Part shown: positions 8,657 to 55,434 of the stretch, piece by piece
Numbering within the stretch: position 1 is the first letter of the stretch
Layout: every line of letters starts with the position of its first letter
The notes under the pieces: model-generated
Seen by the model: only the letters and a program-made list of their open reading frames with translations
What the model was told of the DNA's origin: nothing
The model's database searches: none
Made by a program: the position numbers and the translations under genes
Assembly: GCA_946412355.1 (NCBI GenBank)
Contig: CAMKGX010000004.1
Location: 476-64,475, forward strand
Direction of reading: 5' to 3'
DNA: 64,000 bases
From: an uncultured Clostridia bacterium
Lineage (GTDB): Bacteria; Bacillota; Clostridia; Oscillospirales; Oscillospiraceae

Positions 8657-8828
8657 AAGCATCGCAGATTTCGCGCCGCCGCGCGGCGCGAACCCGTACA
8701 ATCGAAATTTCTGACGACATGCGCGTCAGAAATTTCACCGCTCAGGCCACGCAGTGTGCGAGCGAAGCGAGTGCGCGGAGTGGACTGCAAAAAAGTGGCA
8801 AAAAACGGCGCAGCCGATTTTTGCCAGA
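8657..8828. repeat. Structured dispersed repeat, copy 1 (MITE-like)
   Basis: AAGCATCGCAGATTTCGCGCC...CTGACGACATGCGCGTCAG...GACTGCAA is shared with 41510-41658. Confidence 0.7.
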
Positions 8829-8839
8829 GAAAGGCCGCT

Positions 8840-9781
8840 ATGGGAACGATTGCAAAAAAAACAGGCACTTTACTGCTGACACTGCTCCTGGTATCAGCTA
8901 TGGCCTTTCTGGCCTTTCAGATCATCCCCGGCGACCCCGTCACCAAGATCCTGGGCACGGACTACACGCCGGAGCGGGCCGCCACGCTGCGCCACGAGCT
9001 GGGGCTGGAGGGAGATCTCTCCGCCCGGTATCTCCGGTGGCTGGCCGGCTTCATCACCGGCGACTTCGGCATCTCTTACAGCTACATGAAGCCCGTGCGG
9101 CAGGTCATGCAGGGCAAACTGGCAGTCACGGCGGCACTTTCGGTGCTGTCGTGGCTGCTTGTGCTGCTTTTCAGCATCCCTCTGGGCATCGCCCTGGCCC
9201 GGTACCACAAGGGCGTTTTCGCCCGGGCTGCCGCCACGGTGAACCAGGTGTTCATGGCGGTGCCGCCGTTTTTCATCGGCATTTTGTTCACCTATCTCTT
9301 CGGCCTGCTGCTGAAATGGTTTGTGCCGGGTAAATTCGTCCCCTTTTCCGAGAGCTTTTGGGGCTGCCTGGGCTATCTCTTCTTCCCGGCCCTTGCCATC
9401 GCCATCCCCAAGGCCGCCAAAACGGCCCGACTGCTGGTGTCGTCCATCATGGGCGAGATGCAAAAGGACTACGTCCGCACCGCCTACAGCCGGGGCAACT
9501 CCCGCTGGATGGTGATACGCACCCACGTGCTGCGCAACGCCCTTTTGCCGGTGGTCACGTACCTGGCCATGTCCCTGGCGGACATCGTGGCCGGCTCCAT
9601 CATCGTGGAGCAGGTGTTCGTGGTGCCGGGCATCGGGCGGCTGCTGGTGGCCTCCATCGCCTCCCGGGACTTCCCCGTGGCGCTGACCATCGTGGTCATC
9701 ATCGCGGCGCTGGTGGTGTTTATGAACTACGTGGCCGACCTGGTCACCCAGTTCATCGACCCCCGGGTCAGACTGTCGTAA
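8840..9781 (+). CDS. Peptide/nickel ABC transporter permease (OppB/DppB-like)
   Basis: IIPGDP, GDFGISY, YVRTAYSRG, LRNALLP. Confidence 0.93.
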   Translation: MGTIAKKTGTLLLTLLLVSAMAFLAFQIIPGDPVTKILGTDYTPERAATLRHELGLEGDLSARYLRWLAGFITGDFGISYSYMKPVRQVMQGKLAVTAALSVLSWLLVLLFSIPLGIALARYHKGVFARAAATVNQVFMAVPPFFIGILFTYLFGLLLKWFVPGKFVPFSESFWGCLGYLFFPALAIAIPKAAKTARLLVSSIMGEMQKDYVRTAYSRGNSRWMVIRTHVLRNALLPVVTYLAMSLADIVAGSIIVEQVFVVPGIGRLLVASIASRDFPVALTIVVIIAALVVFMNYVADLVTQFIDPRVRLS

Positions 9782-9795
9782 AGGGGGACCGGGCC

Positions 9796-10599
9796 ATGAT
9801 TGATACCCACAACAGAACCTTCCGGGCCGGGGCGGTGATTACCGGTATCATGCTGCTCATCATCCTCGTCGGCCTTGTCTGGACGCCCTATGACCCCAAC
9901 GCCATGAACGGCGCGGCCAAGCTGGCCTCCCCCAGCCTTGCCCACCTGCTGGGCACCGACAACTTCGGCCGGGACATCTTCTCCCGTGTGGTGCAGGGGG
10001 CCGGGGCCACGTTCCTCATCGCCGCCGTGTCGGTGGCGGCGGGGCTGGTCATCGGCGTGGTGCTGGGGGGCCTCACCGGCTGGTACGGCGGCTGGGTGGA
10101 TGAGCTTTTGATGCGGCTCAACGATACCCTTACCGCCTTTCCCAGTATCCTGCTGGCCCTGGTGCTGATTGCCCTTTTCGGCAGCGGGAAATACAACATC
10201 ATCTTCGCCCTGGGCCTGCTGTTCGTGCCCACCTTTGCCCGCATCGTCCGCATGGAGGTGGCCAAGCAGAAGGAGCTGGACTACGTCCGCAGCGCCCGGC
10301 TCATGGGCGTGGGCAGCATGCGGATATTGTTCGTCCATATCCTGCCCAACATCGTGCCGGTGCTGCTGTCCACCATCGCCATCAGCTTCAATAACGCGGT
10401 GCTGGCGGAGGCATCCATGAGCTATCTGGGGGTGGGCGTGCAGCCCCCGGACCCCAGCCTGGGCCGTATGCTCAACGAGGCCCAGAGCTATCTGCTCTCC
10501 GCGCCGTGGTACGCCCTGTCCAGCGGCGTGGCCATCGTGCTGCTGGTGCTGGGCTTCGGACTGCTCAGCGAGGGCCTGGGAGGTGAAACCGATGCTTGA
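9796..10599 (+). CDS. Peptide/nickel ABC transporter permease (OppC/DppC-like)
   Basis: LLGTDNFGRDIFSR, HILPN, LSYLGVGVQPPDPSLG-like motifs. Confidence 0.93.
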   Translation: MIDTHNRTFRAGAVITGIMLLIILVGLVWTPYDPNAMNGAAKLASPSLAHLLGTDNFGRDIFSRVVQGAGATFLIAAVSVAAGLVIGVVLGGLTGWYGGWVDELLMRLNDTLTAFPSILLALVLIALFGSGKYNIIFALGLLFVPTFARIVRMEVAKQKELDYVRSARLMGVGSMRILFVHILPNIVPVLLSTIAISFNNAVLAEASMSYLGVGVQPPDPSLGRMLNEAQSYLLSAPWYALSSGVAIVLLVLGFGLLSEGLGGETDA

Positions 10600-11392
10600 A
10601 ATCCGTGATTTGCACGTCACCTTTACCACCACCGGCAAGGAGGCGGTAAAGGGCATCGACCTCACCATCCAGCCGGGAGAGCGGGTGGGCCTGGTGGGGG
10701 AGTCGGGCTCGGGGAAAACCGTGACCGCCATGACCCTCTCCGGCCTTATCGAGCGCAGCATCGTGCAGCTCTCCGGCCAGGTGCTGCTGGACGGCCGTGA
10801 CATTCTCCACTGCTCCCGGGCGGAGCTGCGACAGGTCCACGGCCGGGAGATCGGCATGGTGTTCCAGGAACCCATGACCAGCTTGAACCCCCTCATGCGG
10901 GTGGGGGAGCAGATTGAGGAGACCCTCCGCATCCACACCCACCGCACCCCGGCCCAGCGCAAGGCCCTGGCCCTGGAGGCCATGGCCCAGGTGGGCCTGC
11001 CTGACCCGGAGACCACCTATTATAAATATCCCCATCAGCTCTCCGGCGGCCAGCGGCAGCGGGCCATCATCGCCTCGGCCATGATTATCCTGCCCAAGCT
11101 GCTGATTTGCGACGAGCCCACCACCGCCCTGGATGTGACGGTGCAGAAGCAGATTCTGGATTTGCTGCGCCGCCTCAGCGAGGAATACCACGTGGCGGTG
11201 CTGCTCATCAGCCACGATATGACCGTGGTGCGCCGCCTGTGCGAGAACGTGGCGGTGATGTACCAGGGCCGCATTGTGGAGCGGGGCAGGACGGAGGATA
11301 TCTTCCGCCATCCCCAGGACGAATACACCCGGCGGCTCATCGCCGCCATCCCCACGAGGAAACGCCATGACGCAACCGGAAAAGACAACTGA
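10592..11392 (+). CDS. Peptide ABC transporter ATP-binding protein (OppD-like)
   Basis: [24 protein letters not shown]. Confidence 0.93.
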
Positions 11393-12125
11393 ACACGTGC
11401 TGGAGGTGGCGCATCTCTCCGTCACCTACCACGATAAGCACCTTTTCGCCCCGGACACGTCCTTTCAGGCCCTCACCGACGTGACCTTCCACGTGAACCA
11501 CGGGGAGATTCTGGGCCTGGTGGGGGAGTCGGGCTGCGGCAAATCCACCTTGAGCAAGGCCATTTTGGGCATGCTGCCCCGGGCGGAGGTAAAGGGTGAG
11601 ATCCGCCACTTCACCAAGCGGCCCCAGATGGTGTTCCAGGACCCCTTCGGCAGCCTGAACCCCGCCAAAACCGTGGGTTGGATTCTGGAGGAGCCCTTAC
11701 GGGTGTTCGGCAAGTACGACGCCCCGGAGCGCCGCCGCCGGGTATTGGATATGCTGGAGCGCGTGGGGCTGGGGGAGGAGTACGCCTCCCGGCGGCCCGC
11801 CCAGCTCTCCGGCGGCCAGCGGCAGCGGCTGTCCATCGCCGTGGCGCTGATCCAGCGGCCCCGGTTCATCCTGGCCGACGAGCCGGTGTCCGCCCTGGAT
11901 GTCACCATCCAGGCCCAGATACTGGACTTGCTGTGGGACTTGCGGCAGGAGCTGGATTTGAGCTACCTCTTCATCAGCCATGATCTGAACGTGATCTACT
12001 CTATCTGCGACCGTGTCATGGTGATGGAAAAGGGCCGCATCATCGAGCAGGGCACCGTGGATGAGGTCTACGACCACCCCCAGCAGGAGTACACCCGCAA
12101 GCTGCTGGGCGCGGTGCAGCTATGA
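11367..12125 (+). CDS. Peptide ABC transporter ATP-binding protein (OppF-like)
   Basis: [24 protein letters not shown]. Confidence 0.93.
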
Positions 12126-12139
12126 AAGGAGCAAGGGAA

Positions 12140-12292
12140 ATGAAACGGTTTCTCAGCGTAATCCTGGCGCTGCTGGCCCTCACCGGCCTGGCACTGGCCT
12201 ACATCCTGCGGTGGGACGTGAAATGGATCAAAGCCATCGAGCCCATCGGATTGAAAATCTTCAAGCCCATCCGGCGTAAGGAAGAAGAATAA
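12140..12292 (+). CDS. Small (50 aa) putative membrane protein, not in the ORF track
   Basis: AAAGGAG RBS; MKRFLSVILALLALTGLALAYILRWDVKWIKAIEPIGLKIFKPIRRKEEE*; followed at once by a terminator. Confidence 0.6.
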   Translation: MKRFLSVILALLALTGLALAYILRWDVKWIKAIEPIGLKIFKPIRRKEEE

Positions 12293-12293
12293 G

Positions 12294-12322
12294 AAAAAGC
12301 CACCCGGAAGGGTGGCTTTTTT
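12294..12322 (+). terminator. Intrinsic terminator of the ABC operon
   Basis: AAAAAGCCACCC-GGAA-GGGTGGCTTTTTT. Confidence 0.85.
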
Positions 12323-12362
12323 GCCGGTGAAGAGAGAAAAGGGAGGAGGGAAAGGAGGCGGC

Positions 12363-13009
12363 GTCCGCTGCGCGAACGGATTGGAATGACATCATTCTGA
12401 TGCGCCGCAGCGCAAATCATGTGCCGTCAGGCACCATTCATGCCGCAAGGCAATTCATGCGCCTTTGGCGCAATTCATTTTTCCATGCGCCCACCGCCCC
12501 GCCCGGATGAACGGCACCCGGTAACGCCAACCATGCGTAGGGGCGGGGCTCTGCTCCGCCCAAACCCGGCACCGCCCACCATTCCGCCCGTTTGGATGGC
12601 AACGGCGTCAAATCACTCCGTAGGGGCGCTTCACGAAGCGCCCGCCGCCCAGGCAACGCCTACCGCCGAGCCGGGTTGCACGCCACCCGGCGGCAGATAC
12701 CACCGTAGGGGCCGACGCCCCGGCGGCCCGCACCCCGGCAACAATCACCGTCCATGTTGGCTGAATGGCACATGCCTTCCTATTGTCCGTAGGGGCGCTT
12801 CAGGTCGCGCCCGCCACCCAGGCAACGCCTACCAACCCGCCTGGATGAATGGCACACGGTAACATCACCCATTCGTAGGGGCGGACGACTCTGTCCGCCC
12901 GATGCCCGGGCGCAGCATCGCAAAAAGGGCGGAGCAGCGCCAGCGACACCCTGCGAAGAATGAGCAGTTGGTGGAGCCAGTGCCCTTGGGGTAAGCCCCG
13001 CCCCTACGA
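12363..13009. repeat. Intergenic REP-like array
   Basis: GTAGGGGC-palindrome units at 12537, 12620, 12705, 12789 and 12875; inverted 82-bp module at 12927-13008. Confidence 0.85.
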
Positions 13010-13030
13010 GCCATTTGGCAATATCCCCGG

Positions 13031-14086
13031 TCATCCCCCGTAATACACGCCGGTTTCCTTGCCGTTCAGCATGTAATACGCCGTGTCCGCCGCCTCGTCC
13101 AGCCGCGTCAGGTGGGACCCGGCGGGGAAGCACAGCGTCTCCGTGTCGGCGGGGAACCGGGAGGCGGAAAGACTGACCCAGAACCGGGGCAGCAGGGGCA
13201 CCGTCAGGTCGTCCACCGGGCAACCGGATTGGGCCCGCATCTCTCCCGTCATCAGGAAATAGGTCAGGTCCAGGGGCTCAGCGGGGTCCCGCAGCCCCCA
13301 GGTGACGTCGGAGTGATACCCCGCCCCGTCCAGCACCAGGTAGACCCACTCGTGGTCCATGCCGTCGGAGAAGCAGCTGACATCCACCGCCTCCACCCCG
13401 GCCTGCACCAGCAAAAAGGCATAGAGCCCCGCCAGATCCACGCACTGGCCCTCCCGGGAATGGAAGGTGACGAAAACGGAGCCGTCCCCCTTGTCCGGCA
13501 CGAAGTCGTATTCGTACAGGAAGTTGAGGGACATATAGTTGTACAGCTTCAGGGCCTTTTCAAAATCGGTGTCGCAGTTGCGGAGGACCTTGTTCAGCAG
13601 CGCCGCCACGTCGGCCTCAAACTGGGCCTGCCGGCCCAAAAACTCCTCCACGGGAACCTCGTAATGCACCCGGCCCACGCCGTCCGAGAAGCCGTCCTCC
13701 ACCGGCGTGACCCTGGTGCAGGCGGCGGGGAAGAGGTGGTTCAGCGTGGCCTGGTCGGTGGCCCAGCGGTAGGCCTCCTGGCTGGCGCAGGCGAAGGTGT
13801 CCTCCCCGGAGCGCAGGGCGTCGCAGAGGCTGTGCAGCGCCTGCCAGTATTCCTCCGGCACGTCCGCCGCCACCAGAGGCACGGTGAGGTGGGGGTTATA
13901 GACGTAGGGCTCCCCCGGCTCCTCCGCCTCGCTGCCCGCCTCGCTGTCGGTCTCGCCGCCGTCTTCACCGGCGATTTCGCCGCTCTCCACGGGGGCGGCG
14001 TCGTCCTCCGGCGCCGCGGTTTCCTTTGCCCCGCAGCCGGCGAGCAGCAGCAGCGCCAATATCACACATAGCCATTTTTTCAGCAT
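13031..14086 (-). CDS. Transglutaminase-like domain lipoprotein
   Basis: Lipobox LLLAGC; Cys-His-Asp triad in GQCVDLA, DHEWV and HSDVTW. Confidence 0.8.
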   Translation of the reverse strand: MLKKWLCVILALLLLAGCGAKETAAPEDDAAPVESGEIAGEDGGETDSEAGSEAEEPGEPYVYNPHLTVPLVAADVPEEYWQALHSLCDALRSGEDTFACASQEAYRWATDQATLNHLFPAACTRVTPVEDGFSDGVGRVHYEVPVEEFLGRQAQFEADVAALLNKVLRNCDTDFEKALKLYNYMSLNFLYEYDFVPDKGDGSVFVTFHSREGQCVDLAGLYAFLLVQAGVEAVDVSCFSDGMDHEWVYLVLDGAGYHSDVTWGLRDPAEPLDLTYFLMTGEMRAQSGCPVDDLTVPLLPRFWVSLSASRFPADTETLCFPAGSHLTRLDEAADTAYYMLNGKETGVYYGG

Positions 14087-44789: not shown

Positions 44790-44819
44790 AGGGAGGAGCA
44801 ACGCTCCTCTCTTTTTTTG
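44790..44819 (+). terminator. Intrinsic terminator
   Basis: GAGGAGC-AAC-GCTCCTC followed by a T-run. Confidence 0.65.
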
Positions 44820-45073: not shown

Positions 45074-45320
45074 ATGCCGGAATTTGCCACAGGTTAAAAC
45101 GGAAGAAATGCCGTGTAATGCCGCCGATAGAAAAGGAGGAAAAGCCGGAAAAAGCGCAGCATGGAAACAAACAGAATGCCGGGATCGGCTTACGCAGAAA
45201 AGAGAGAAAATGCCGGGTAATGCTACCATATAAAACGGACAAAATGCCGGAATATCCGCTGGGAATGGGTTCGGCAATTTGTCTAAAACTGAGGACTAAA
45301 TGCCGGAATTTGCCGCTTTA
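45074..45320 (+). repeat. Degenerate 34-bp tandem array with an ATGCCG core
   Basis: Cores at 45074, 45108, 45142 (AAGCCG), 45176, 45210 and 45244; one off-phase copy at 45300. Confidence 0.8.
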
Positions 45321-45435: not shown

Positions 45436-45461
45436 GAAAGCGAGAAAGGCGGGTGTTTTCC

Positions 45462-45734
45462 ATGATGTATCCATTTTTGCAGATCGACGGCGATACGGAA
45501 ATTGTGCACTCTGAAATGCTTCCCGGCGGGGAAGTGAAGGTATATGTAGAGAAGCCTGACGCAAAGGACGGTTTTCATCATGCCACCTGTTTTCTGCCGA
45601 CCTATCGCTGGGAGGACATTCAGGGCTTTTCCGCGAAAGAGATTGACCGGTACCAGGAGGTCATCGAGTCGACCGCGCATTTGATTATGGAGTTTGCACA
45701 GACAGGAGGCTTCGACCATGCCGCAGGTCTTTAA
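45462..45734 (+). CDS. Small acidic protein, putative antitoxin partner of DUF4160
   Basis: MMYPFLQIDGDTEIVHS..VKVYVEKPDAKDGFHHA; AAAGG RBS; overlaps the next gene by 17 nt. Confidence 0.7.
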   Translation: MMYPFLQIDGDTEIVHSEMLPGGEVKVYVEKPDAKDGFHHATCFLPTYRWEDIQGFSAKEIDRYQEVIESTAHLIMEFAQTGGFDHAAGL

Positions 45735-45996
45735 GATCGGCGCCTACTGGGTGTATTTCTGGGCAAATGAGAATGAGCCGTTAGAGCCGGTGCACGTTCA
45801 CATTTCGGAGGGGGCACCGGTGGCGAATGGTACAAAAGTATGGATTACAAAGTCCGGAAAATGCCTGCGGTGCAATAACGACTCTCATATCCCTGAAAAA
45901 GTGCTGCGGAACATCATCAGAGTGATTGAAGCGCGCAGCGGCGAAGTCATCGAAAAGTGGGTGGACTTCTTCGGCGAGGCAACATTTTTTTGTTGA
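45718..45996 (+). CDS. DUF4160 domain protein (putative toxin)
   Basis: YWVYFWANENEPLEPVHVH..TKVWI resembles the DUF4160 motif; GGAGG RBS. Confidence 0.75.
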   Translation: MPQVFKIGAYWVYFWANENEPLEPVHVHISEGAPVANGTKVWITKSGKCLRCNNDSHIPEKVLRNIIRVIEARSGEVIEKWVDFFGEATFFC

Positions 45997-46020: not shown

Positions 46021-46066
46021 AAACCCACCCCCGCTTTCAGAATGAAAGCGGGGGTGGGTCTGTTTT
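46021..46066. terminator. Bidirectional intrinsic terminator
   Basis: ACCCACCCCCGCTTTCA-GAA-TGAAAGCGGGGGTGGGT between convergent genes. Confidence 0.8.
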
Positions 46067-46102: not shown

Positions 46103-47794
46103 TTATGTTGCGCTTTTTACGGCGCCACCGGGATTGGGCTGGGTACCTTGGCGAGGACTTGCCTGCTGACTGGCTTTGCCTTTTCTTGCAGCGGATTTCC
46201 GCTTCGGTTTTCCGTTCTGCACGAGGCGCGGCTTTGTGGAGAGGGAGACACCGTTGAGACATTCAACAGAAACATGTCCGCCTGGAGGAATGCGAAGGGT
46301 AATGTCAGCAGCAACGGTGCTCCTGGTGTTCGGCGGGCTGAAATAAGTGGTAGAAATCCCGTTGTCGGTGTTGGCAGGCGGCTCGATGATTTTCATGAGC
46401 GGTTGGACTGCCATCTGGGCGATATGCATACGCTTTGCCGCAGCCGGTTCGGTGAAGGAGGTGTAGTGATCGCTGGTGACATCCCCCAACGGCTTACCCT
46501 GCAAAAAATGCACGGTAGCAGGATCGTCTGCCAAGCCGCAGTTGTTTTGCAGGAGAGAATCGTAGGTGTTGAACATGATCCGCTCAGAGACAGCGGATTT
46601 TGGAGCGCGCCAGCAGCGGAATGTTTCCTCTTTTACGCCGATATCGCGCAGCCGCTTATTGGCACATTGCAGGACAACATTGCGGCCCATTGCCTTAGCG
46701 GGATTGGTATCCTGGGAGATAATGGGCATTGTACGCAGCTTTTTCGGCTTGTAACGGCTTTGCAGGCTGCGGTAACGGTCCCTCAGAATCAGCGCCGCCT
46801 GGGGGAAAAGCGGACGGGTATAGTCGTGAGTAGCTCCTGCATTGTTGCTTTTCGTGATTCGCACGCGAGCCAGCGACGCATCACCCGGGTCGAAAAGGAT
46901 GTCGCCCCACACAAGGGCTTCTGAAGGGGGAACACGCCCCCAGAGCATCAGCGCTACACCGCAGTCACACCCGCTGGGCGGATGCTGCATGATTAAGGTA
47001 TAGAGTTCATCGCACATGGTCAGGTCGAGCACTGCGGGATTGGCGGCGCGTGCCTGCAGGAGCTTGGTAGATATCTTTTGCTGTGCGTTGGAGGGGACCG
47101 GGTTGACACCGGTACAAAGCGCTTTTTCCAACAGGTATTTCCAAAACCGATACAGAAGCCGTTGCCCGCGATTGGAGATGTTATCCTTTTTGACGGCGGC
47201 GGCAATTTCCGCCTGGGAGATTTCTCTCATGGCTTTATTGGGCAGCGATGCGCATGTGCTCGTTAAGCGAGAGATATGAGCATCAGCTGTTTTCTGGGAA
47301 GCCTTTTTTCCGTCTTCCAATGTAAACTGCTCGGCATAGAGCTGAGCCGCCTCGGACGGCGTAATCGTTTCCGGCTTGCACACGCCACGAAGCAACGAGT
47401 TCAGCAAAACGGCATTCTCGGCAAATAACCGCTTTGCGGTTTCCTCAATGTGCGACTTCACCGCGTCGACATTGCCGCCGTTAAACTTGGTATCTTTAAA
47501 GACCGCACACTGCTTACAGTGCGGCGTATCTATATTGACATTGCCGTGTTTACGCTGATAACTATTGATCCGCTGGCGCCGCGCCTTGCCAGTCAATTGC
47601 AGCACCTTCCCGCTCTCGGGCGAGAGGACGCTGACGCGGCCAGTATAGTCATATTCCCCGTTGACCTGCTTGGTAATGCTGAATTTAAACGCAACACCGT
47701 TATGCCAGTATATCCCCTTATAATGCTCACGTCCGTCAGCAAGCTGCCGCACATCAAATGTGGTGCGTTTGTTATCCCACTCCTTGTCCGTCAT
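46103..47794 (-). CDS. Tyrosine-recombinase-fold protein, predicted catalytically deficient
   Basis: Box I-like LMLWGRVPPSEALVWGDI, box II-like FLQGK..TSDHY; AGGAGGT RBS 14 nt downstream of the upstream recombinase stop region. Confidence 0.7.
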   Translation of the reverse strand: MTDKEWDNKRTTFDVRQLADGREHYKGIYWHNGVAFKFSITKQVNGEYDYTGRVSVLSPESGKVLQLTGKARRQRINSYQRKHGNVNIDTPHCKQCAVFKDTKFNGGNVDAVKSHIEETAKRLFAENAVLLNSLLRGVCKPETITPSEAAQLYAEQFTLEDGKKASQKTADAHISRLTSTCASLPNKAMREISQAEIAAAVKKDNISNRGQRLLYRFWKYLLEKALCTGVNPVPSNAQQKISTKLLQARAANPAVLDLTMCDELYTLIMQHPPSGCDCGVALMLWGRVPPSEALVWGDILFDPGDASLARVRITKSNNAGATHDYTRPLFPQAALILRDRYRSLQSRYKPKKLRTMPIISQDTNPAKAMGRNVVLQCANKRLRDIGVKEETFRCWRAPKSAVSERIMFNTYDSLLQNNCGLADDPATVHFLQGKPLGDVTSDHYTSFTEPAAAKRMHIAQMAVQPLMKIIEPPANTDNGISTTYFSPPNTRSTVAADITLRIPPGGHVSVECLNGVSLSTKPRLVQNGKPKRKSAARKGKASQQASPRQGTQPNPGGAVKSAT

Positions 47795-47808: not shown

Positions 47809-49374
47809 TTAAGACCCGATGGCGGGCTTGTTTTCGCGAATACCGCGGGTATTTTTCGACACGTTGCTTGCCTGAAGCATGGTAACTCCTGTATCACAGG
47901 AGACAGAAATGGTACTGCCCGCCTCTTCGGCGTGGACTGTCAGAGTGAGCATCAGCTCCTCACTGCCGTCATTGACAAGCTTGAACTTGTCATAGGCAAT
48001 ATAATTGACATCCTGGTTTGCACACAGTGAGATGGGCGTCAAGGCAGGATGGTGAGATCCGATGGGGAAAAGGACATCCCGCTCCATCTTGGCGGCCAAA
48101 AGCGCCTGGTTGGAAGGCAGCCTGTAATCCGGCTTTGCGGTGATACTCTTGGAGGACTCGTGCCCCATGAGATAGTCAATTTCGTCCTGTGTCAGACCAC
48201 ACTTGTTGCGCCAACGAGAGGCACAGTCCCGGCGGAGCACATAGGCGGTAACCTCATTGTTGTCCACAGCGTCCTTCTGCGGGTCCAAATAGGCCACGTT
48301 GGATACATCGTCCCAAAAAGTGGGGCTCGCAATAAAAGTGCTGAGGTTAGTCCGCACCCAGGCGGAGAGGTCATCTGCTTTCATCAGCGGTTGTGGAGAC
48401 GTGGGGCGGGTCAGATGGCCAAGACAACTTCGGATGACACTTGTGGGACCGGCGGGGATGACTACGGTGCGGTAGGCGTTGTTGGTCTTGAGGGTGGGAC
48501 ACCGTGCGCTGTCTTTCTCCTGAAATAGAATCGTGACAGTGCAACCGAAGTCTGTAAAGGTAATGTCCGTCCACGGATCCACTCCTGCGGCTTCCGCTGT
48601 TCGCGCGGCCCCGGCAAACATCAGCATGGCGCACAGCGCATGCTTGGGATCGGATTCAGCGGCGGTCTGCAAGAATTCGGCAAATTGCTGCCGCACGGAG
48701 TCGCTCAGTGCTTTGACCTGCTCCGGACGAATAAGCTTGAGCCGATTACGCGACCTGAGCACAATAGTGGGGAGGGTGGGATCCACTCCGCACATGGCGT
48801 CATAGATCTTCTGCGCGGCGGTCAGATTGCTATTGGCGGTGTTAATCACGGAGGACGTGCCGGTGTGGCTGTTGCCATTGTTTGTGATGTCCTGGATGAT
48901 GGCTTGCCGCAGTTCATAACGATCCTGGTCAGTGAAGGGCTGGTTCAGATAATCCTGGAGTCTCGGGAGAATGTTAATTCCGAAATAGGTGAGCCACCGT
49001 TTGGCGACGGTGCTGCGCCACTGAGTCCAATCTTTTGGTTCGGTTTTTTCCAGTTTTCTGAAGCTGAGCGTCATGGCGTTATTTTCGTCCAGGCCGTTGC
49101 TGCTATGGGCGGACTGCTGCCGCGCCTGCACCGGGTGACGCAACGCGGACAGGATAGAGTCCACAAGACTCCGCTTTGCCGAATCGATTGCAGTCGGGTT
49201 ATCGGGGACGCCCCTGCGCGGCAGCGTTTTGGACCCGTCAACCCGCGTTTGCGTTCCGTGCTGTACAGCGTAGCCCTGTAGATTGACCGTGGACCTTCCG
49301 GCTTTGCGGGATATGGTGATGTGAGCATCTACATCCGGCCTTTTGGTCGGTACATTAATTGCATTGATTGCCGT
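47809..49374 (-). CDS. Tyrosine recombinase/integrase, apparently active; start codon uncertain
   Basis: MFAGAARTAEA (Arg), LKT (Lys), YVLRR (Arg), LMGH (His), KPDY (Tyr). AAAGGAGG RBS at 49383-49390 points to a start near 49374; the 794-aa ORF-track call overlaps the divergent gene. Confidence 0.8.
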   Translation of the reverse strand, partial: TAINAINVPTKRPDVDAHITISRKAGRSTVNLQGYAVQHGTQTRVDGSKTLPRRGVPDNPTAIDSAKRSLVDSILSALRHPVQARQQSAHSSNGLDENNAMTLSFRKLEKTEPKDWTQWRSTVAKRWLTYFGINILPRLQDYLNQPFTDQDRYELRQAIIQDITNNGNSHTGTSSVINTANSNLTAAQKIYDAMCGVDPTLPTIVLRSRNRLKLIRPEQVKALSDSVRQQFAEFLQTAAESDPKHALCAMLMFAGAARTAEAAGVDPWTDITFTDFGCTVTILFQEKDSARCPTLKTNNAYRTVVIPAGPTSVIRSCLGHLTRPTSPQPLMKADDLSAWVRTNLSTFIASPTFWDDVSNVAYLDPQKDAVDNNEVTAYVLRRDCASRWRNKCGLTQDEIDYLMGHESSKSITAKPDYRLPSNQALLAAKMERDVLFPIGSHHPALTPISLCANQDVNYIAYDKFKLVNDGSEELMLTLTVHAEEAGSTISVSCDTGVTMLQASNVSKNTRGIRENKPAIGS

Positions 49375-49531
49375 GGGATCGCCTCCTTTAGAAAAAGCTC
49401 TGGTATAGTATAGAACTATTAAAGGCGACAAAGCTAGCCAATCGTTCACTTTAGCGGGGAAGAATGTATTGTGAACCGAGGCAGATGTGGTATACTGGAT
49501 CTGGTAGTGAAAATAAGGGAGGGGAATATAC

Positions 49532-51085
49532 ATGGCAGAATCTATAGAATCTGTGTGGAAACGTGGTGTCGATTGTGAACGTACGGAGCTGCTGGGAATC
49601 GACGGGCTGAATGTACTATCGGGGGATATTGATCCGGTGTTCACAGCTGTCAAGAGCGGTGACAGGGGTTGGTACTGTGATACGTGCAGAGAAAGATTGT
49701 ATGTCAAGGAGTATTCCCGGCGCGATCTGCACGATGTCATCCCCCAATGGGTTTGCGACAACAACAAAGCGTCACCATATGATAGGCTTAAATATTTAGG
49801 ACCCAGATTACTATGCCCCAACTGTAACAAGCGGGTATCACCTAAAGAAGAGTTTGCGGCCCCAAAAGCGCGCTGCACATACAGGATGCAGCAGTATATA
49901 GGCCTGGGGGTGATGCTCTCTCCCATCAGACAAGTCAGAAAGAGCATTGACAACCAGATTAGCATAAGCGGCATCGAGAAGATTTTTTCGGGGTGGCTGA
50001 AAGAATTTGATGCAAAGGTACATGAAAGAATGAAATCGCCCGATGTTCTGGGTGTTTTCGTTATTCGCACGGAGGCAGAGCAGGAGTTAACAATTCTGCT
50101 GGATTGCTGGAGTGGGAATCTGCTGGATATTGTGGAACCGGGCGATGCTGATGCGCTGAAGGACAGGTTAAGTGCGCTGCAGGGTAAAAACAAAACAAAA
50201 GAATTGTTTATTGACCCTTATAACTGGATATATGATGCAGTAAAGGCTGTATACAAAAGGGCGTCCATCAAGATGGCCCCATTGCGTGTATCGGAAACGG
50301 TTCGAAGAGAGGCGTCAGCCGATATTGCGGCGATAGTCCGGAAGAAAGCGGACAGGAAGCTATTTCGGGATGACCCGAAACAGCTATCCCCGAGGAGGAA
50401 GAAGAAAAAGGATTGGTTACAGCAGACAATCCAGGGCCTGGAGGATCTGGAAAAGGGTATCTGCGTGATGGCAGAAGCCGCCAAAAGAGAATCGATAAGT
50501 CCACGTTTGTCTACTTTCTCAAAAAACCTACAGCGCTATTGGCGTAATAACGAGATAGCTATTTCAAACTGTGAAGTTGATAGTTTACCTGACAGCGCGA
50601 TAGATGCCATTCGGACGGAACAGGAAGCTCTTTCCTACACCAACGGATGTGGGCTGCCGGCCTTGCGGGCCCGCACGCTGTACACAGACGCGGCAGAGAA
50701 TTGCTTTAACGACTTCTTCGGCATAGGGGGGGAAAACGGATTCAACCTGAGGAAAATGGATGACGGGATAATGTATAACGCACTGATGAGTTGGGAGCTG
50801 AACAAATCATCACGCTATGTGCCCATTGACATGATCCCCTATTTGATAGCCGCCATTGAGCCGGCGGTTGATGTGCTGAATAGTGAAGGCTCCATGAGAG
50901 AGATGTGCTTCCACCCGGAAAACCGTGACCGGCTGCTGAAAGAAGCATATCAATTCGGATTTCCACAATTGGTTGTAGAGAGAAACCTTGCTGCCGCAAA
51001 CAGGCTGATTCGACAGCAACGCAGAAACAGACGAGGGGACGCAATCGAAAGAAGCGCATGGACAGAAGAGGACTGGCAGAAGTGA
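49532..51085 (+). CDS. ISL3-family transposase-derived protein with degenerate DDE motif
   Basis: CxxC..CxxC zinc finger (CDTC, CPNC), KARCTYRM, LGVFVI, LDIVE, FIDPY, LRARTLY; GGAGG RBS. Confidence 0.72.
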   Translation: MAESIESVWKRGVDCERTELLGIDGLNVLSGDIDPVFTAVKSGDRGWYCDTCRERLYVKEYSRRDLHDVIPQWVCDNNKASPYDRLKYLGPRLLCPNCNKRVSPKEEFAAPKARCTYRMQQYIGLGVMLSPIRQVRKSIDNQISISGIEKIFSGWLKEFDAKVHERMKSPDVLGVFVIRTEAEQELTILLDCWSGNLLDIVEPGDADALKDRLSALQGKNKTKELFIDPYNWIYDAVKAVYKRASIKMAPLRVSETVRREASADIAAIVRKKADRKLFRDDPKQLSPRRKKKKDWLQQTIQGLEDLEKGICVMAEAAKRESISPRLSTFSKNLQRYWRNNEIAISNCEVDSLPDSAIDAIRTEQEALSYTNGCGLPALRARTLYTDAAENCFNDFFGIGGENGFNLRKMDDGIMYNALMSWELNKSSRYVPIDMIPYLIAAIEPAVDVLNSEGSMREMCFHPENRDRLLKEAYQFGFPQLVVERNLAAANRLIRQQRRNRRGDAIERSAWTEEDWQK

Positions 51086-51105: not shown

Positions 51106-51154
51106 AAAAACAGCGGGCCGGGTGAGCAGAGATGCTCTCCCGGCCCGCTGTTTT
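51106..51154 (+). terminator. Intrinsic terminator
   Basis: AAAACAGCGGGCCGGG..CCCGGCCCGCTGTTTT. Confidence 0.8.
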
Positions 51155-51282: not shown

Positions 51283-51599
51283 AGGGTAAAAGAAAAAAGT
51301 GCGGCAGCAAGAGGGGGCGGCAACCCCCACTTGCCTGCATAGGTGAAGTGAGCACCTACACAGCAGAAATGAATCTGCACCGCACCTGTAGTATATTCTT
51401 TTTTCGCTTCGTTTGCAAGGGGGGAAAGGGTATGCGAAGGGACGGGGCAGTATGTGCACCGTGTAGGACTGACCTGCACGGTTTTTCTTATTTCTTCGGA
51501 AAGGAGGTTCGTCCGGCCTGCGGGGGCAGGCTGGGCAGGTATGTTTGCCGGCATACCTTCATATGTTGGAACAACAAAACGCATATGGAGGGTATCATA

Positions 51600-51704
51600 A
51601 TGAAACGCAAAGACACGACGACCTATCGCGTTACGCGTCACTTTGAGGGGACCCGCTCCGCCAGGGAGGTAGTGGCGGCGCTGGTCAGGACCCACAGCCG
51701 ATAA
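51600..51704 (+). CDS. Small (34 aa) protein coupled to the serine recombinase
   Basis: GGAGG RBS; MKRKDTTTYRVTRHFEGTRSAREVVAALVRTHSR*; stop 4 nt before the recombinase ATG. Confidence 0.6.
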   Translation: MKRKDTTTYRVTRHFEGTRSAREVVAALVRTHSR

Positions 51705-51708
51705 GCCT

Positions 51709-53319
51709 ATGGGTACGAAAGATACATACCGCGTCGGGCGCTACGCCCGACTTTCCCGGGAGGACGGGGACAAGCTGGAGAGCGACAGCATCGTCAACCA
51801 GCAGCGGGTGATAGAGGACTACTGCGCGGTCCATGCCGGGCTGGTCATCGTAGAGGACTATGCGGACGACGGCTTTACCGGCACCAACTTTAACCGCCCT
51901 GCGTTCCGGCGGATGCTGGACGACATTGAGAAGAACAAAATCGACTGCATCGTCGTGAAGGACCTGTCCCGTTTCGGCCGTGACTATATCGACATGGGCT
52001 ACTACCTGGAGCGGTACCTGCCCAGCCGGAATATACGGTTCATTGCCATCAATGACAATGTGGACAGCCTGAATGGGCCCTATGACATGCTGCTGCCGCT
52101 GAAGAACGTCTTCAACACACAGTACGCCAAGGACATCTCCGGGAAGGTGCGGAGTGCCTTCCGCGTCAAGCAGCAGCGGGGCGAATTCGTGGGCGCCTTT
52201 GCCTCCTACGGCTACCAGAAGGACCCGGAGAACCACAACAGGCTGATGGTTGACCCGGTGGCAGCCCGGGTGGTTTTGCGGGTGTTTCAGATGGCAGCCC
52301 AGGGCATCGGGCAGGTGCGCATTGCCAAGACACTGAACGAGGAGAAGATTCCCTGTCCCAGTGAGTATAAGAAGATGATGGGCATGAAGTACTGCAACAA
52401 CCACCGCCTGGAGACCACCCGGTACTGGACCTACGCCACCATTCACCGCATGCTGACCAATGAAATGTACGCGGGTGCCATGGTGCAGAACCGCAGTGTG
52501 CGGCCCACGATGCACGGCAAGGCAAAGGCGCTGGATAAGAAGGACTGGGTGGTGGTGGACAATACCCACGAGGCCATTATCTCCCGGGAGCTGTGGGACA
52601 CGGTGCAGGCGCAGGTGGCCAAGAATGGCCGGGAGATCGACTTCCAGGGCAACCTGGGCCTGTTCGCAGGCTTTCTGTTCTGCGGTGATTGCGGACGGGC
52701 CATGGTCAAGACTATTTGGGGCAAGAAGACCACCTACTCCTGCGGCTCCTACCGCCGGTATGGGGCGACGGTGTGCAGCAGTCATTCCACGCCTATGGAA
52801 ACGCTGGAGGCCATCATTCTGGCGGACCTGAATCGCATTATCGCAGAGGTGAAGGATCTGCGCCAGGTGGCGGAGTCGTGCCGGGAGGAGAGCCCCCTGC
52901 AGGCGCGGCGCTCGTCCGAGCAGCAGCGTCTTACCGCCGCCTTGACACGGGTGCAGCACCTGAAGAAGGGCGCCTATGAAGATTACAAGGAGAACCTGCT
53001 GTCCCGGGACGAGTATCTCCGCTATAAGGAGGACTACGACAAGCAGGAGGCGTCATTGCAGGGGCAACTGGCTCAGCTGGCGCAGCAGGAGGACCCTCAA
53101 GAGCTTTTGCAGGAGCCCTGGGTGGACCAGCTCCTGCGGTTGGGCTGCCTCACAACGCTGGACCGGGCGACCCTGGCGCAGACGGTGAAGGAAATCCGGG
53201 TGTTTGAGGACAAGCACATCGAGATTACCTACCTCTTCTCCGACGCGCTGCGGGTGCTGTTGGAAAAACCCGGCGAGGAGGAGGGACAGGCCGCCCGCGA
53301 GGAGAACTGCACACCTTAA
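51709..53319 (+). CDS. Large serine recombinase (resolvase + recombinase + zinc-ribbon + coiled coil; TnpX/TndX-like)
   Basis: YARLSREDG (catalytic Ser), SIVNQ, DDGFTGTNFNRPAF, VKDLSRFGRDY, FCGDCG..CGSY..CSSH. Confidence 0.93.
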   Translation: MGTKDTYRVGRYARLSREDGDKLESDSIVNQQRVIEDYCAVHAGLVIVEDYADDGFTGTNFNRPAFRRMLDDIEKNKIDCIVVKDLSRFGRDYIDMGYYLERYLPSRNIRFIAINDNVDSLNGPYDMLLPLKNVFNTQYAKDISGKVRSAFRVKQQRGEFVGAFASYGYQKDPENHNRLMVDPVAARVVLRVFQMAAQGIGQVRIAKTLNEEKIPCPSEYKKMMGMKYCNNHRLETTRYWTYATIHRMLTNEMYAGAMVQNRSVRPTMHGKAKALDKKDWVVVDNTHEAIISRELWDTVQAQVAKNGREIDFQGNLGLFAGFLFCGDCGRAMVKTIWGKKTTYSCGSYRRYGATVCSSHSTPMETLEAIILADLNRIIAEVKDLRQVAESCREESPLQARRSSEQQRLTAALTRVQHLKKGAYEDYKENLLSRDEYLRYKEDYDKQEASLQGQLAQLAQQEDPQELLQEPWVDQLLRLGCLTTLDRATLAQTVKEIRVFEDKHIEITYLFSDALRVLLEKPGEEEGQAAREENCTP

Positions 53320-53499
53320 GGGCAGCGAACAGCTGCCCCAAAAGGACGGCAGGATGCGCAACCTGCTATTTTCAACAGAAGAAAAGGATGGGTGCGGTGA
53401 GAAAGAAAACCGTTTCTCGCCGGGCCCAAATAAAGGTACATATAGGGGACACATAAGCGAGGGCGTGTGCCCAGATAATATGATAAGGAGGTAATACAT

Positions 53500-53859
53500 A
53501 TGAAACGTCACGGTAAACAAGCAAACGCAAGGCTGTATCACTTCGGCAGGAGGGAGAGCAGCACCACCGCTCCGGCTGGGTGGGGGAGGGAGCGGATGAT
53601 GCTCTCGGGTGGGCTGGATATGGACTGTCGTAGCCGCGGCGCATTCACGGCTTGGGGGGTACCTGAAGCTGATAGGGTGAGCCTGTACCGGCAGGGCTGT
53701 GTGCTGACGGGAGGAGGTGCGGCGTAAAAAACGAATTTGCACAGCATTGACAATCTGTTTACTCTGGCAGAGCCGCTTGGCGTTACCGTGGGTAAAATGA
53801 TTGCGAGAAAACACTATTGCAACGGCAGAGAGGGGCTGTTCCCCTCCCGCACACAATAA
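53500..53859 (+). pseudogene. Possible decayed XRE-type HTH gene (in-frame TAA at 53725-53727)
   Basis: AAGGAGGT RBS and ATG 53500; the same frame after the stop reads HSIDNLFTLAEPLGVTVGKMI, resembling the C-terminal helices of XRE HTH domains. Confidence 0.35.
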
Positions 53860-53885
53860 TAATTTACGAGAGAAGAGGTAAGAAA

Positions 53886-54857
53886 ATGAGCATTATGGAC
53901 GATTATCAGAATAGCCAGAAGTTTTTCTTTGGCATGGCCGGTGGTTATAACGCCTTCGACGTGTGCGCCGCCTTCATCCTGGAGGAGGTGCGGCTGTATC
54001 GGAACAAGAACGGCGGGCAGAACATGGTGTGCACGCTGCGGAACTGCAAGGGCGCCATCGCCGGCATCTGCTTTGATTACTGCGGAGAGTTGGATGAGTC
54101 CAGCGCCGGCACCCCTGTGATGGTGCAGGGTAGGATGGGCTCCTACAAGGGCGCGCCCCAGATTCGGATTATCGACATCTGGCCTCTGGATGCTGACGAC
54201 GCGCAGAACGACATCCGGACGCTGCTGCCCCACGGGTTGTTGTCGGGGGAAGAGGGGTTTAAGACGTTCCGGGATGCCATGGTGGCGAAGATCCAGGACG
54301 GGGACTATCTCCTGTTGTGCAAGGCGTTGGTGGACGAAAACAAGGAGGTGTTCAGTTCCTGCCCGGCGTCCACCGGCAGCCATCACGCCTGCGTGGGCGG
54401 TCTGCTGACCCACACCTTCGAGGTGATGGAGTGGGCGTATAACTTCGCTGAATACTACAATGATACCTATGACTTTGGCATTGACAAAGAGCTGCTGACT
54501 GCCGGGGCGGTGCTCCACGACATCGGCAAGGTGCGTGAGTATGGCTTTGACAGCACCGGCGCGGCAATGCGGCCCACGGATGCCATGAAGGAGAACGCCC
54601 ATGCGCTGGAGGGCGCCATGATGATTCGGGAGATGGCCCAGGAGCTGGGCACGCCGGAGGATAAGGCAAGGAAGCTGGAAAACCTGGTGGCCAGCCACCA
54701 CACCGCCTATCCGTTCCGCGTTGGCGTGAGCCCCATCACGCCGGAGGCCAAGCTGCTGGCGGTGGTGGACAACCTGGACAGCAGCGTGAGCAGTAACTTC
54801 GGTAAGGACGTCACTTTTTTGGAGGGCAAGCCGGTGCACACCGGAGACGTAGCGTGA
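53886..54857 (+). CDS. YhaM/CBF1-like OB-fold + HD-domain 3'-5' exoribonuclease family protein
   Basis: HHACVGGLLTHT, GAVLHDIGKVREY, HALEG, ASHH, DNLD; GAGGT RBS. Confidence 0.85.
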   Translation: MSIMDDYQNSQKFFFGMAGGYNAFDVCAAFILEEVRLYRNKNGGQNMVCTLRNCKGAIAGICFDYCGELDESSAGTPVMVQGRMGSYKGAPQIRIIDIWPLDADDAQNDIRTLLPHGLLSGEEGFKTFRDAMVAKIQDGDYLLLCKALVDENKEVFSSCPASTGSHHACVGGLLTHTFEVMEWAYNFAEYYNDTYDFGIDKELLTAGAVLHDIGKVREYGFDSTGAAMRPTDAMKENAHALEGAMMIREMAQELGTPEDKARKLENLVASHHTAYPFRVGVSPITPEAKLLAVVDNLDSSVSSNFGKDVTFLEGKPVHTGDVA

Positions 54858-54890
54858 GGGGCCGCGGGAATGTGTATAACGGGATAATCA

Positions 54891-54921
54891 TCGTGGAGGG
54901 CTGCACAGCAGTCCTCCACGA
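54891..54921. terminator. Strong hairpin between the HD gene and the CRISPR trailer (likely terminator)
   Basis: TCGTGGAGG-G-CTGC-ACA-GCAG-T-CCTCCACGA. Confidence 0.55.
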
Positions 54922-54936
54922 AATCAGTTATCGACT

Positions 54937-55434
54937 ATTTGAGACCCCTACAGAATTACACTGCTCTCAAACGTTCAGGCTCTTGCCCACGTTTCTGCCG
55001 AGGTTTGAGACCCCTACAGAATTACACTGCTCTCAAACGACCATTTGTTGACCACGGCACAATTTTCCGTTTGAGACCCCTACAGAATTACACTGCTCTC
55101 AAACCCCGCGACCATGCTGATTTTGAAAAGCGCCGTTTGAGACCCCTACAGAATTACACTGCTCTCAAACCACCTCACAGCTGCAGGCATACGTTTGCAA
55201 GTTTGAGACCCCTACAGAATTACACTGCTCCCAAACTCACGGGCAGTATCAGCCAGCGGGATATGGGTTTGAGACCCCTACAGAATTACACTGCTCTCAA
55301 ACCGTGATTTATTTACCCCTGCTGCGATTGCCGTTTGAGACCCCTACAGAATCACACTGCTCTCAAACGTTGACGGCCTTTGCTAATAGGCAAAGGGAGT
55401 TTGAGACCCCTACAGAATTGCACTGCTCTCAAAC
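54937..55434 (-). CRISPR. Type II-A CRISPR array: 8 repeats of 36 bp, 7 spacers of 30 bp
   Basis: Repeat (minus sense) GTTTGAGAGCAGTGTAATTCTGTAGGGGTCTCAAAC at 54937, 55003, 55069, 55135, 55201, 55267, 55333 and 55399 (66-bp period); terminal repeat at 54937 is degenerate. Confidence 0.98.

Follow-up and report, generated by a model that had tools for sequence, protein, structure and literature searches.

A catalytically inactive relative of ISL3 transposases encoded beside a pair of tyrosine-recombinase genes in Clostridia

We analyzed a 64,000-nucleotide (nt) stretch of DNA from an uncultured Clostridia bacterium (assembly GCA_946412355.1, contig CAMKGX010000004.1; hereafter the window), in which an intact gene of 517 codons, here called gene C, lies divergently from two adjacent genes for tyrosine-recombinase-like proteins, genes B and A. 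The C protein is homologous to the transposases of ISL3 insertion sequences (IS), has lost all three residues of their catalytic triad, has been under long-term purifying selection, and is encoded next to B in each of the independent loci in which we found a relative of this family. It has probably been domesticated as the DNA-binding part of a tyrosine-recombinase module of three genes, serving in the recognition of element ends or targets and possibly in promoter control. The three genes are as follows.

46103..47794, minus strand: gene A, a 563-aa paralogue of B (hhalign against B; orthologues after B in 6 loci)
47809..49374, minus strand: gene B, a tyrosine-recombinase-like protein of ~521 aa, divergent from C (Phage_integrase 17.7 bits, under cut-off)
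49532..51085, plus strand: gene C, a catalytically dead ISL3-transposase derivative of 517 aa (open reading frame, hhalign, AlphaFold2 model)

Gene C is homologous to ISL3 transposases but lacks their catalytic triad

The open reading frame (ORF) of gene C contains no stops or frameshifts, as an earlier reading made from the sequence alone (the sequence-only reading) had described it. Its product falls under every curated family threshold. Pfam DDE_Tnp_ISL3 (PF01610) gave 16 bits (E 0.011; cut-off 23) and NCBIfam transpos_ISL3 (NF033550) gave 35 bits over aa 85-246 (E 8.5e-9; cut-off 180), Zn_ribbon_ISL3 and HTH_Tnp_ISL3 were not reported at E up to 1, and a sequence search of the PDB returned nothing significant. 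A word-indexed homologue search recovered just two relatives, and a full hidden Markov model (HMM) search was required; the profile search of 1.84 billion representative proteins gave 89 matches at E <= 1e-3, 17 of them at E <= 1e-10; roughly 80 of the matches were noncanonical.

We then compared a family profile, made from 11 of the closest full-length relatives of C, with five canonical ISL3 transposases (PF01610 165-209 bits). The family aligned with these DDE-intact proteins over 367 columns (hhalign probability 99.9%, E 1.5e-35), from the zinc ribbon, where C is matched to the ISL3 CxxC...CxxC pattern, through the C-terminal LRAKxLY motif. In this alignment the canonical LGIDE stands opposite LGVFVI in C, the first Asp being replaced by F176; DKFH stands opposite APLR, the second Asp being replaced by A249; and TNAxTExxN stands opposite PDSAIDAI, the Glu being replaced by I357, with D358 one residue off. 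The sequence-only reading had paired the motifs in this way (LGIDE with LGVFVI, DxFH with APLR, NxxxEGxN with SAIDAI), and the profile alignment, which recovered no acidic triad in C, confirms all three pairings. The same reading held that the second catalytic Asp survives in an IDP motif, which is not the case. That residue, D228 (FIDPY), aligns with a conserved, noncatalytic Asp of an MDM motif and lies outside the triad, so none of the three catalytic residues is left in C.

The loss extends across the family. In a column read-out of 45 sequences, D, D, and E were all kept only by the six canonical controls; the first Asp was substituted in all noncanonical members, and the second was substituted in most. 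Every member examined of the triad-less clade described below has a hydrophobic residue, His, or another nonacidic residue at the first position. Relatives of C linked to A and B retain at most one of the three positions; an Asp is present at the position of A249 in the two closest homologues (P0001 and P0002). With the metal-binding D-D-E triad lost, C is unable to cut DNA in the usual manner. What the A/B-linked family conserves as invariant or near-invariant columns is C49, C52, C95, C98, R64, D68, R118, the RARxLY tail, and G476-x-P478; among the 11 family members, C49, C52, and C95 are invariant and C98 is nearly so. These conserved zinc-ribbon cysteines, few Arg and Asp residues, tail, and GxP motif indicate binding rather than catalysis. 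The features of gene C, all on the plus strand, are listed below.

49676..49825: zinc ribbon (C49, C52 ... C95, C98), its Cys pairs separated by a long beta-hairpin (alignment; model strands 57-69 and 83-94)
49880..50029: helix-turn-helix region, aa 117-166 (canonical ISL3 alignment; model helices 117-129, 132-138, and 145-166)
50045..50719: RNase-H-like (DDE-type) core without the triad, ending in the conserved LRARTLY tail (alignment, model)
50057-50059, 50276-50278, and 50600-50602: substituted triad codons of F176, A249, and I357, respectively
50720..51082: C-terminal extension carrying G476-x-P478...V482...L486, a motif of the family (near-invariant columns; low model confidence)

An AlphaFold2 model built from the 45-sequence alignment had a predicted local distance difference test (pLDDT) score of 80.5 and a predicted template-modeling (pTM) score of 0.80. 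Its RNase-H-like core contains a five-stranded sheet (residues 172-248; strands 172-179, 185-191, 196-201, 224-227, and 245-248) with pLDDT > 90. The best Foldseek match in the PDB was a DDE transposase, that of ISCth4 (IS256 family; E 3.7e-6), followed by retroviral integrase cores. As judged from this model, C keeps the transposase fold without its chemistry. The zinc-finger motifs (CDTC...CPNC), the helix-turn-helix region, and the LRAR.LY tail noted in the sequence-only reading were all borne out by the alignment, and the helices of the second also appear in the model. The C-terminal extension is modeled with low confidence (pLDDT < 50 at 399-430 and 445-458), and the profile search found no match to it beyond the C family.

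Relatives of C lie next to the same recombinase genes

We found that B divergently adjoins C in all 10 independent loci with a C relative of this family (17-92% identity to the window protein) and that A follows B in all 6 loci long enough to show it. The expectation that close homologues of C would sit beside recombinase genes is thus upheld. By BLASTP and HMM comparison, A matches A, B matches B, and C matches C from locus to locus. The related loci include the following.

L001 and L002: C relatives 92% and 62% identical, respectively; partial B, then C
L018: C relative P0004; A495-B597, then C501
L019: C relative P0006; A563-B542, then C541
L023: C relative P0009; A538-B545, then C507
L025: C relative in a Ruminococcaceae rumen metagenome-assembled genome; A530-B534, then C460
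L058: C relative P0014; A'-B552, then C465
L020 and L021: C relatives P0008 and P0011; N-terminal part of B, then C

Genes of the B family are just as scarce as C. Among 400 genomes of the order, there was one intact copy, that of the window genome, and one decayed remnant (L057, G619:C16, 8493-10990), in which B is reduced to its C-terminal half, A is broken into two ORFs, and no C lies within 8 kb upstream. A related-locus search with an alignment of close C relatives found none in genome or viral contigs and one short metagenome contig, and searches with the C subfamily alignments returned the genome G219 itself or nothing. Copies with 90% identity are present on longer contigs (P0093 on 28 kb, P0094 on 50 kb, and P0097 on 17 kb). 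The A-B-C module is rare, and its hosts are gut and rumen Clostridia, where it lies in an island of low GC content.

Gene C differs from ISL3 insertion sequences

ISL3 transposases and C have a common domain order and fold (zinc ribbon, helix-turn-helix, RNase-H-like core, and LRAKxLY-type tail). Unlike the former, C lacks the D-D-E triad, has an extra conserved C-terminal region, scores below the curated cut-offs, and is always found next to the two tyrosine-recombinase genes. It is present as a single copy in its own 2.06-Mb genome, and neither B nor C had a match in the plasmid (72,556 records) and phage (50,697 records) collections. No inverted pair brackets gene C between 49375 and 51300 (seed 10, minimum 14 nt), although short or degenerate repeats could escape such a search; the statement in the sequence-only reading that terminal inverted repeats were not recognized agrees with this result. 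Relatives on the C branch likewise never occurred as free-standing multicopy IS. For comparison, we sampled ordinary ISL3 elements in the family (~300 genomes) and the class (400 genomes). Many were DDE intact and some were multicopy, such as the intact ISL3 with three identical copies in G1039, and the canonical DDE-intact copies in ~30 other genomes never adjoined A or B.

Long-term selection on C and a mosaic boundary within the gene

Relative to the 62% relative, the dN/dS ratio was ~0.11 for C (aa 1-365, with dS saturated) and 0.11 for B, which shows long-term purifying selection on C. The DNA of this relative (L002) is ~66% identical to the window upstream of ~50636 and 97% identical from there to 51771, a block that runs past C into the start of the large serine recombinase gene downstream. 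Position 50636, to which no strand applies, is thus an approximate recombination breakpoint within gene C. We considered the C-terminal third of C as a foreign module, but this was ruled out by the family-wide GxP...V...L motif; because the motif is family-wide, the 97% block was read as recombination between related elements. At the level of the DNA, the boundary at ~50636 implies that such recombination was recent and took place between diverged relatives. Separately, the nonsynonymous differences between the window C and that of L001 are clustered (e.g., 8 of the 13 residues at aa 298-310), and the L001 relative has a 5-aa duplication after aa 80.

Genes A and B and the B/C intergenic region

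Two adjacent genes of tyrosine-recombinase fold are present, as in multi-tyrosine-recombinase transposons. The C-terminal halves of A and B are homologous (hhalign probability 94%, E 1.3e-7). The positions of B's conserved Arg, Lys, and His are replaced in A, which retains the tyrosine of a DHY motif. A is a paralogue of B with only a candidate nucleophile Tyr left, and B keeps the Arg/Lys/His pocket. No NCBIfam or PADLOC family matched either protein. An invertible-segment (phase-variation) role for A/B is unsupported and was rejected because there are no long inverted repeats nearby.

The apparent start codon of B is an ACG at 49374, located 7 nt past a strong ribosome-binding site (RBS), AAAGGAGG (window 49372-49389, minus strand). 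The ACG is common to the window and the 92% relative, and the 62% relative has an ATG there. B starts either at this noncanonical ACG or at an in-frame GTG at 49452. The divergent intergenic region of 157 bp given in the sequence-only reading holds only if B starts at 49374, where the codon is an ACG. The expression signals around gene C are as follows.

49475-49448, minus strand: weaker promoter-like site TTCACA-16-TAAAGT facing gene B, overlapping the gene C site (consensus match only)
49469-49496, plus strand: gene C promoter-like site TTGTGA-16-TATACT with an extended -10 TG (consensus match only)
49517-49522, plus strand: RBS GGGAGG, 9 nt 5' of the gene C ATG (from sequence; kept in L001 and L002)
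51107-51154, plus strand: terminator-like hairpin 3' of the gene C stop, with 22-nt arms that are 95% complementary and a TTTT end

The TATACT hexamer is kept in L001 and L002. The RBS credited to the ORF in the sequence-only reading is in place, and the terminator is so in part. The hairpin exists and ends in TTTT, but the formal rule-based terminator scan did not call it because the T-run pairs within the stem.

A wider clade of triad-less ISL3 proteins

A maximum-likelihood tree of 51 proteins placed all the triad-less proteins in one clade (Shimodaira-Hasegawa-like approximate likelihood ratio test [SH-aLRT] 99), apart from the DDE-intact transposases (SH-aLRT 95). This dead clade comprises ~40 clusters at 50% identity among the 1.84 billion representatives, and the A/B-linked proteins form two of its subclades. 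In a third subclade (SH-aLRT 98), the protein is encoded by the first gene of type I restriction-modification (R-M) operons (HsdM-HsdS-HsdR) in five independent loci (G131, G1077, G712, L061, and L062). These proteins are 433-448 aa long, the stop codon often overlaps the hsdM start, and one of them is labeled plainly "transposase" in GenBank. The R-M-linked loci are listed below.

L024 (G131:C7): 8682-13063
L061: 883-6113
L062: 939-3246
L064
L065

A member of the fourth subclade, P0057 (441 aa), is encoded divergently beside a Tn7-like TniQ-TnsA-TnsB-TnsC operon (L093 461-7878; L094), which is where a target selector would be expected. This link consists of one protein cluster in two contigs; a phylum-wide search with the Tn7-linked subclade found only DDE-intact ISL3 transposases and did not replicate it in reference genomes.

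Possible role of C and alternative explanations

We consider it probable that C is a domesticated DNA-binding subunit of the module, a reading close to the DNA-binding or target-selection factor for the adjacent recombinases that had been proposed from the sequence and one supported by the loss of the triad in an intact ISL3 fold under selection, the zinc ribbon being its best conserved part, together with the linkage to B and A and the attachment of sister proteins to other DNA-handling operons. As a third, obligatory component encoded divergently from the B-A operon, C would bind specific DNA through its zinc ribbon and helix-turn-helix. The bound DNA could be the element ends, the target site, or both, and possibly also the shared B/C promoter region. 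The former transposase core would act as a scaffold that assembles or positions the A/B recombinase, which would perform the chemistry. In such a scheme the module may itself be mobile.

Several observations weigh against this proposal. For the trio we found no binding site, element end, target duplication, excised circle, or empty site; the trio shares its island of at least 25 kb with a serine recombinase and a CRISPR-Cas9 locus; and most of the related loci are short metagenome contigs. The divergent position of C at a shared promoter suits a plain transcription factor equally well. The sister branches of the dead clade, being tied to R-M and Tn7-like machines and not to tyrosine recombinases, further qualify it. 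The window copy has features of its own in this respect. Its B start codon is ACG, its C has lost the Asp (at A249) that the two closest relatives keep, and C differs from the 92% relative by 45 nonsynonymous and 17 synonymous changes (dN/dS 0.73; B, 0.34; serine recombinase, 0.09), so that this copy of C is possibly under relaxed constraint. Judging from these counts, C in the window lineage may be under relaxed constraint or changing specificity, or the ratio may be neutral on that short branch.

The most serious alternative is that C does nothing more than regulate transcription of the divergent B-A operon and of its own gene, as a repressor or activator made out of a transposase DNA-binding domain and standing outside any recombination complex. 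The overlapping, opposed promoter-like sites in the 157-bp B/C region would fit such a regulator, as would the divergence of the Tn7-linked relative from the first gene of its operon and the placement of another relative as first gene of R-M operons, the usual place of a controller protein. We nevertheless regard it as unlikely, since a protein of 450-540 aa that keeps a full RNase-H-like core and a C-terminal motif down to 17-30% identity has more than a regulator needs, and no operator-like repeat was seen in the B/C intergenic region. Alternatively, C might belong functionally to the downstream serine recombinase cassette instead of A/B. This cassette is found after C in the window and likewise in its three close relatives, L001, L002, and L037, and the 3' end of C and the cassette leader share 97-98% DNA identity. 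However, there is none past C in the distant A-B-C loci that extend that far (L023, L025, and L060), and in the same-genus genome G188 a 98.7% identical cassette stands elsewhere and without C, which makes this explanation very unlikely.

The absence of the catalytic residues, a recent-branch dN/dS of 0.73 that is not clearly distinct from neutral, and the failure to reach any curated family threshold might together suggest a decaying, functionless ISL3 remnant that adjoins the recombinases by chance. Such a remnant is highly improbable given ORFs of 450-540 aa in the same position and orientation at 10 loci diverged to 17-30% identity, with a long-term dN/dS of ~0.1 and no stops or frameshifts. 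It is also extremely improbable that C is still a nuclease or transposase using other acidic residues, such as D358, D228, or D199. D358 is only one residue from the Glu position, D228 is conserved in most family members, and the second Asp is kept in P0001 and P0002; on the other hand, the family has no invariant acidic residue in the core, all dead-clade members examined are nonacidic at the first Asp position and most lack the second Asp, and even the 62% relative does not retain D358.

A broader version of the proposal, which we put forward tentatively as possible rather than probable, takes the dead ISL3 clade as a portable sequence-specific DNA-recognition module used in at least three unrelated machines, i.e., split tyrosine-recombinase pairs, TniQ-dependent Tn7-like systems, and type I R-M systems. 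A-B-C would then be an undescribed family of Clostridia tyrosine-recombinase transposons in which a fossil DDE transposase recognizes the ends or target and a heteromeric recombinase carries out the chemistry. The cross-machine pattern is the most interesting lead from this analysis and its least secure part. To our knowledge, there are few examples of prokaryotic domesticated DDE transposases. Here a whole clade has lost catalysis yet stays under selection and travels with three kinds of DNA-handling systems, and the "transposase" label on one of its proteins would mislead IS censuses. If C is indeed a DNA-recognition subunit of A/B, the module would be a new mobile element family in gut and rumen Clostridia, and it would provide a compact, protein-guided means of targeting whose use in programmable recombination could be tested.

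Comparison with known recombinase systems

Multi-recombinase transposons require an accessory protein, namely TnpC in Tn554 (TnpA, TnpB, and TnpC), Srap in integrative elements that circularize in a strand-biased manner (SE; IntA, Tfp, IntB, and Srap), and GinD in the GInts (GinA-D) (PMC10214605). Like them, A-B-C has two recombinase-fold proteins, one of which, like Tfp and GinC, is missing part of the catalytic set, together with an additional protein, which in Tn554, SE, and GInt is needed for recombination; terminal inverted repeats are not evident in any of them or in A-B-C. A and B have no NCBIfam matches and thus are not close to TnpA or TnpB. A-B-C also differs in that the accessory protein is a 517-aa dead DDE transposase and not a small protein of the TnpC/Srap/GinD type (Srap and GinD were compared by description only), in that C is divergent instead of being the last operon gene, and in that its hosts are Clostridia.

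An inactivated enzyme has been described as a portable target selector in the case of TnsF, which is common to the Tn7-like Tn6022 and the tyrosine-recombinase transposon Tsy (PMC10293859). Both TnsF and C are inactivated enzymes of a recombination class with N-terminal zinc fingers, in C linked to a recombination operon as in TnsF-like selectors, and C may likewise have been reused for DNA recognition. The TnsF selector family occurs in unrelated transposition machines, and one dead-ISL3 relative of C lies beside a TniQ gene. The origin of TnsF is a tyrosine recombinase and that of C a DDE transposase. The main text of that study mentions no ISL3-derived selector, and a full-text literature search found no paper describing an ISL3-derived accessory or selector protein or the A-B-C arrangement. 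Read in this way, C would belong to a known kind of component, the accessory or selector proteins found in tyrosine-recombinase elements, here with a DDE transposase as its source. If C is the DNA-recognition subunit of A/B, it would add to TnsF a second case, of independent origin, in which a recombination enzyme was inactivated and came to serve as a cross-machine target selector.

Genomic island and neighboring genes

The GC content falls from ~0.63 to ~0.52 past 45 kb, and A-B-C lies within this lower-GC island. G188 (same genus, ~96% DNA identity) is collinear with the window to 44817 and then runs into contig C34 of the window genome (~850-1276); by this comparison, an island of at least 25 kb extends from 44819 to beyond the window end (to C34:~850). 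Its cargo includes A-B-C, the serine recombinase, an HD-domain gene, and a whole CRISPR-Cas9 locus, and it is inserted directly after the terminator of a GntR-type gene. The host side of the junction is rich in GC-rich, repetitive extragenic palindromic (REP)-like repeats. The features of the island outside the trio are listed below.

44818..44819, no strand: left junction of the lower-GC island holding A-B-C, absent at that site in G188
45453-45996: two small overlapping ORFs of 93 aa and 100 aa (DUF4160), between a repeat array and gene A
51588..53340, plus strand: large serine recombinase cassette, a 34-aa ORF and a 536-aa recombinase (Pfam Resolvase, Recombinase, and Zn_ribbon_recom)

In G188, the cassette (L017, G188:C35, 198-2144; window counterparts 51588-53340 and 54795-54958) lies within a different coding gene and has no A, B, or C, and the serine recombinase is therefore a module separate from A-B-C. 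There almost nothing separates it from the CRISPR leader, and the counterpart of window 53341-54794, which encodes the 346-aa HD-domain protein, is missing.

With regard to the ends of the trio, a conserved host-type gene begins ~290 bp past C in G219, and many metagenome contigs break 100-500 bp past C, which together hint at an element boundary just beyond C. Comparison of the G219 right flank with 21 same-genus genomes matched nothing beyond 480 conserved bp of the next gene and revealed no empty site, and repeat searches found no terminal repeats, inverted or direct, for the trio. A perfect 17-nt hairpin is located at 46023-46059, between the two small ORFs and the end of A. Beyond the 3' end of A, window 45074-45320 contains an array of 34-bp units starting ATGCCGGAATTTGCC, and the G219 trio has 24-bp units, TGGCGAAAATCTCCCGGCGC, in the same place (L025 1-100, at the contig start). 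The two arrays have a common GCCGGAA-type core in opposite orientation and are weakly similar; they are possibly protein-binding arrays, but the similarity could be due to chance and we do not rely on it.

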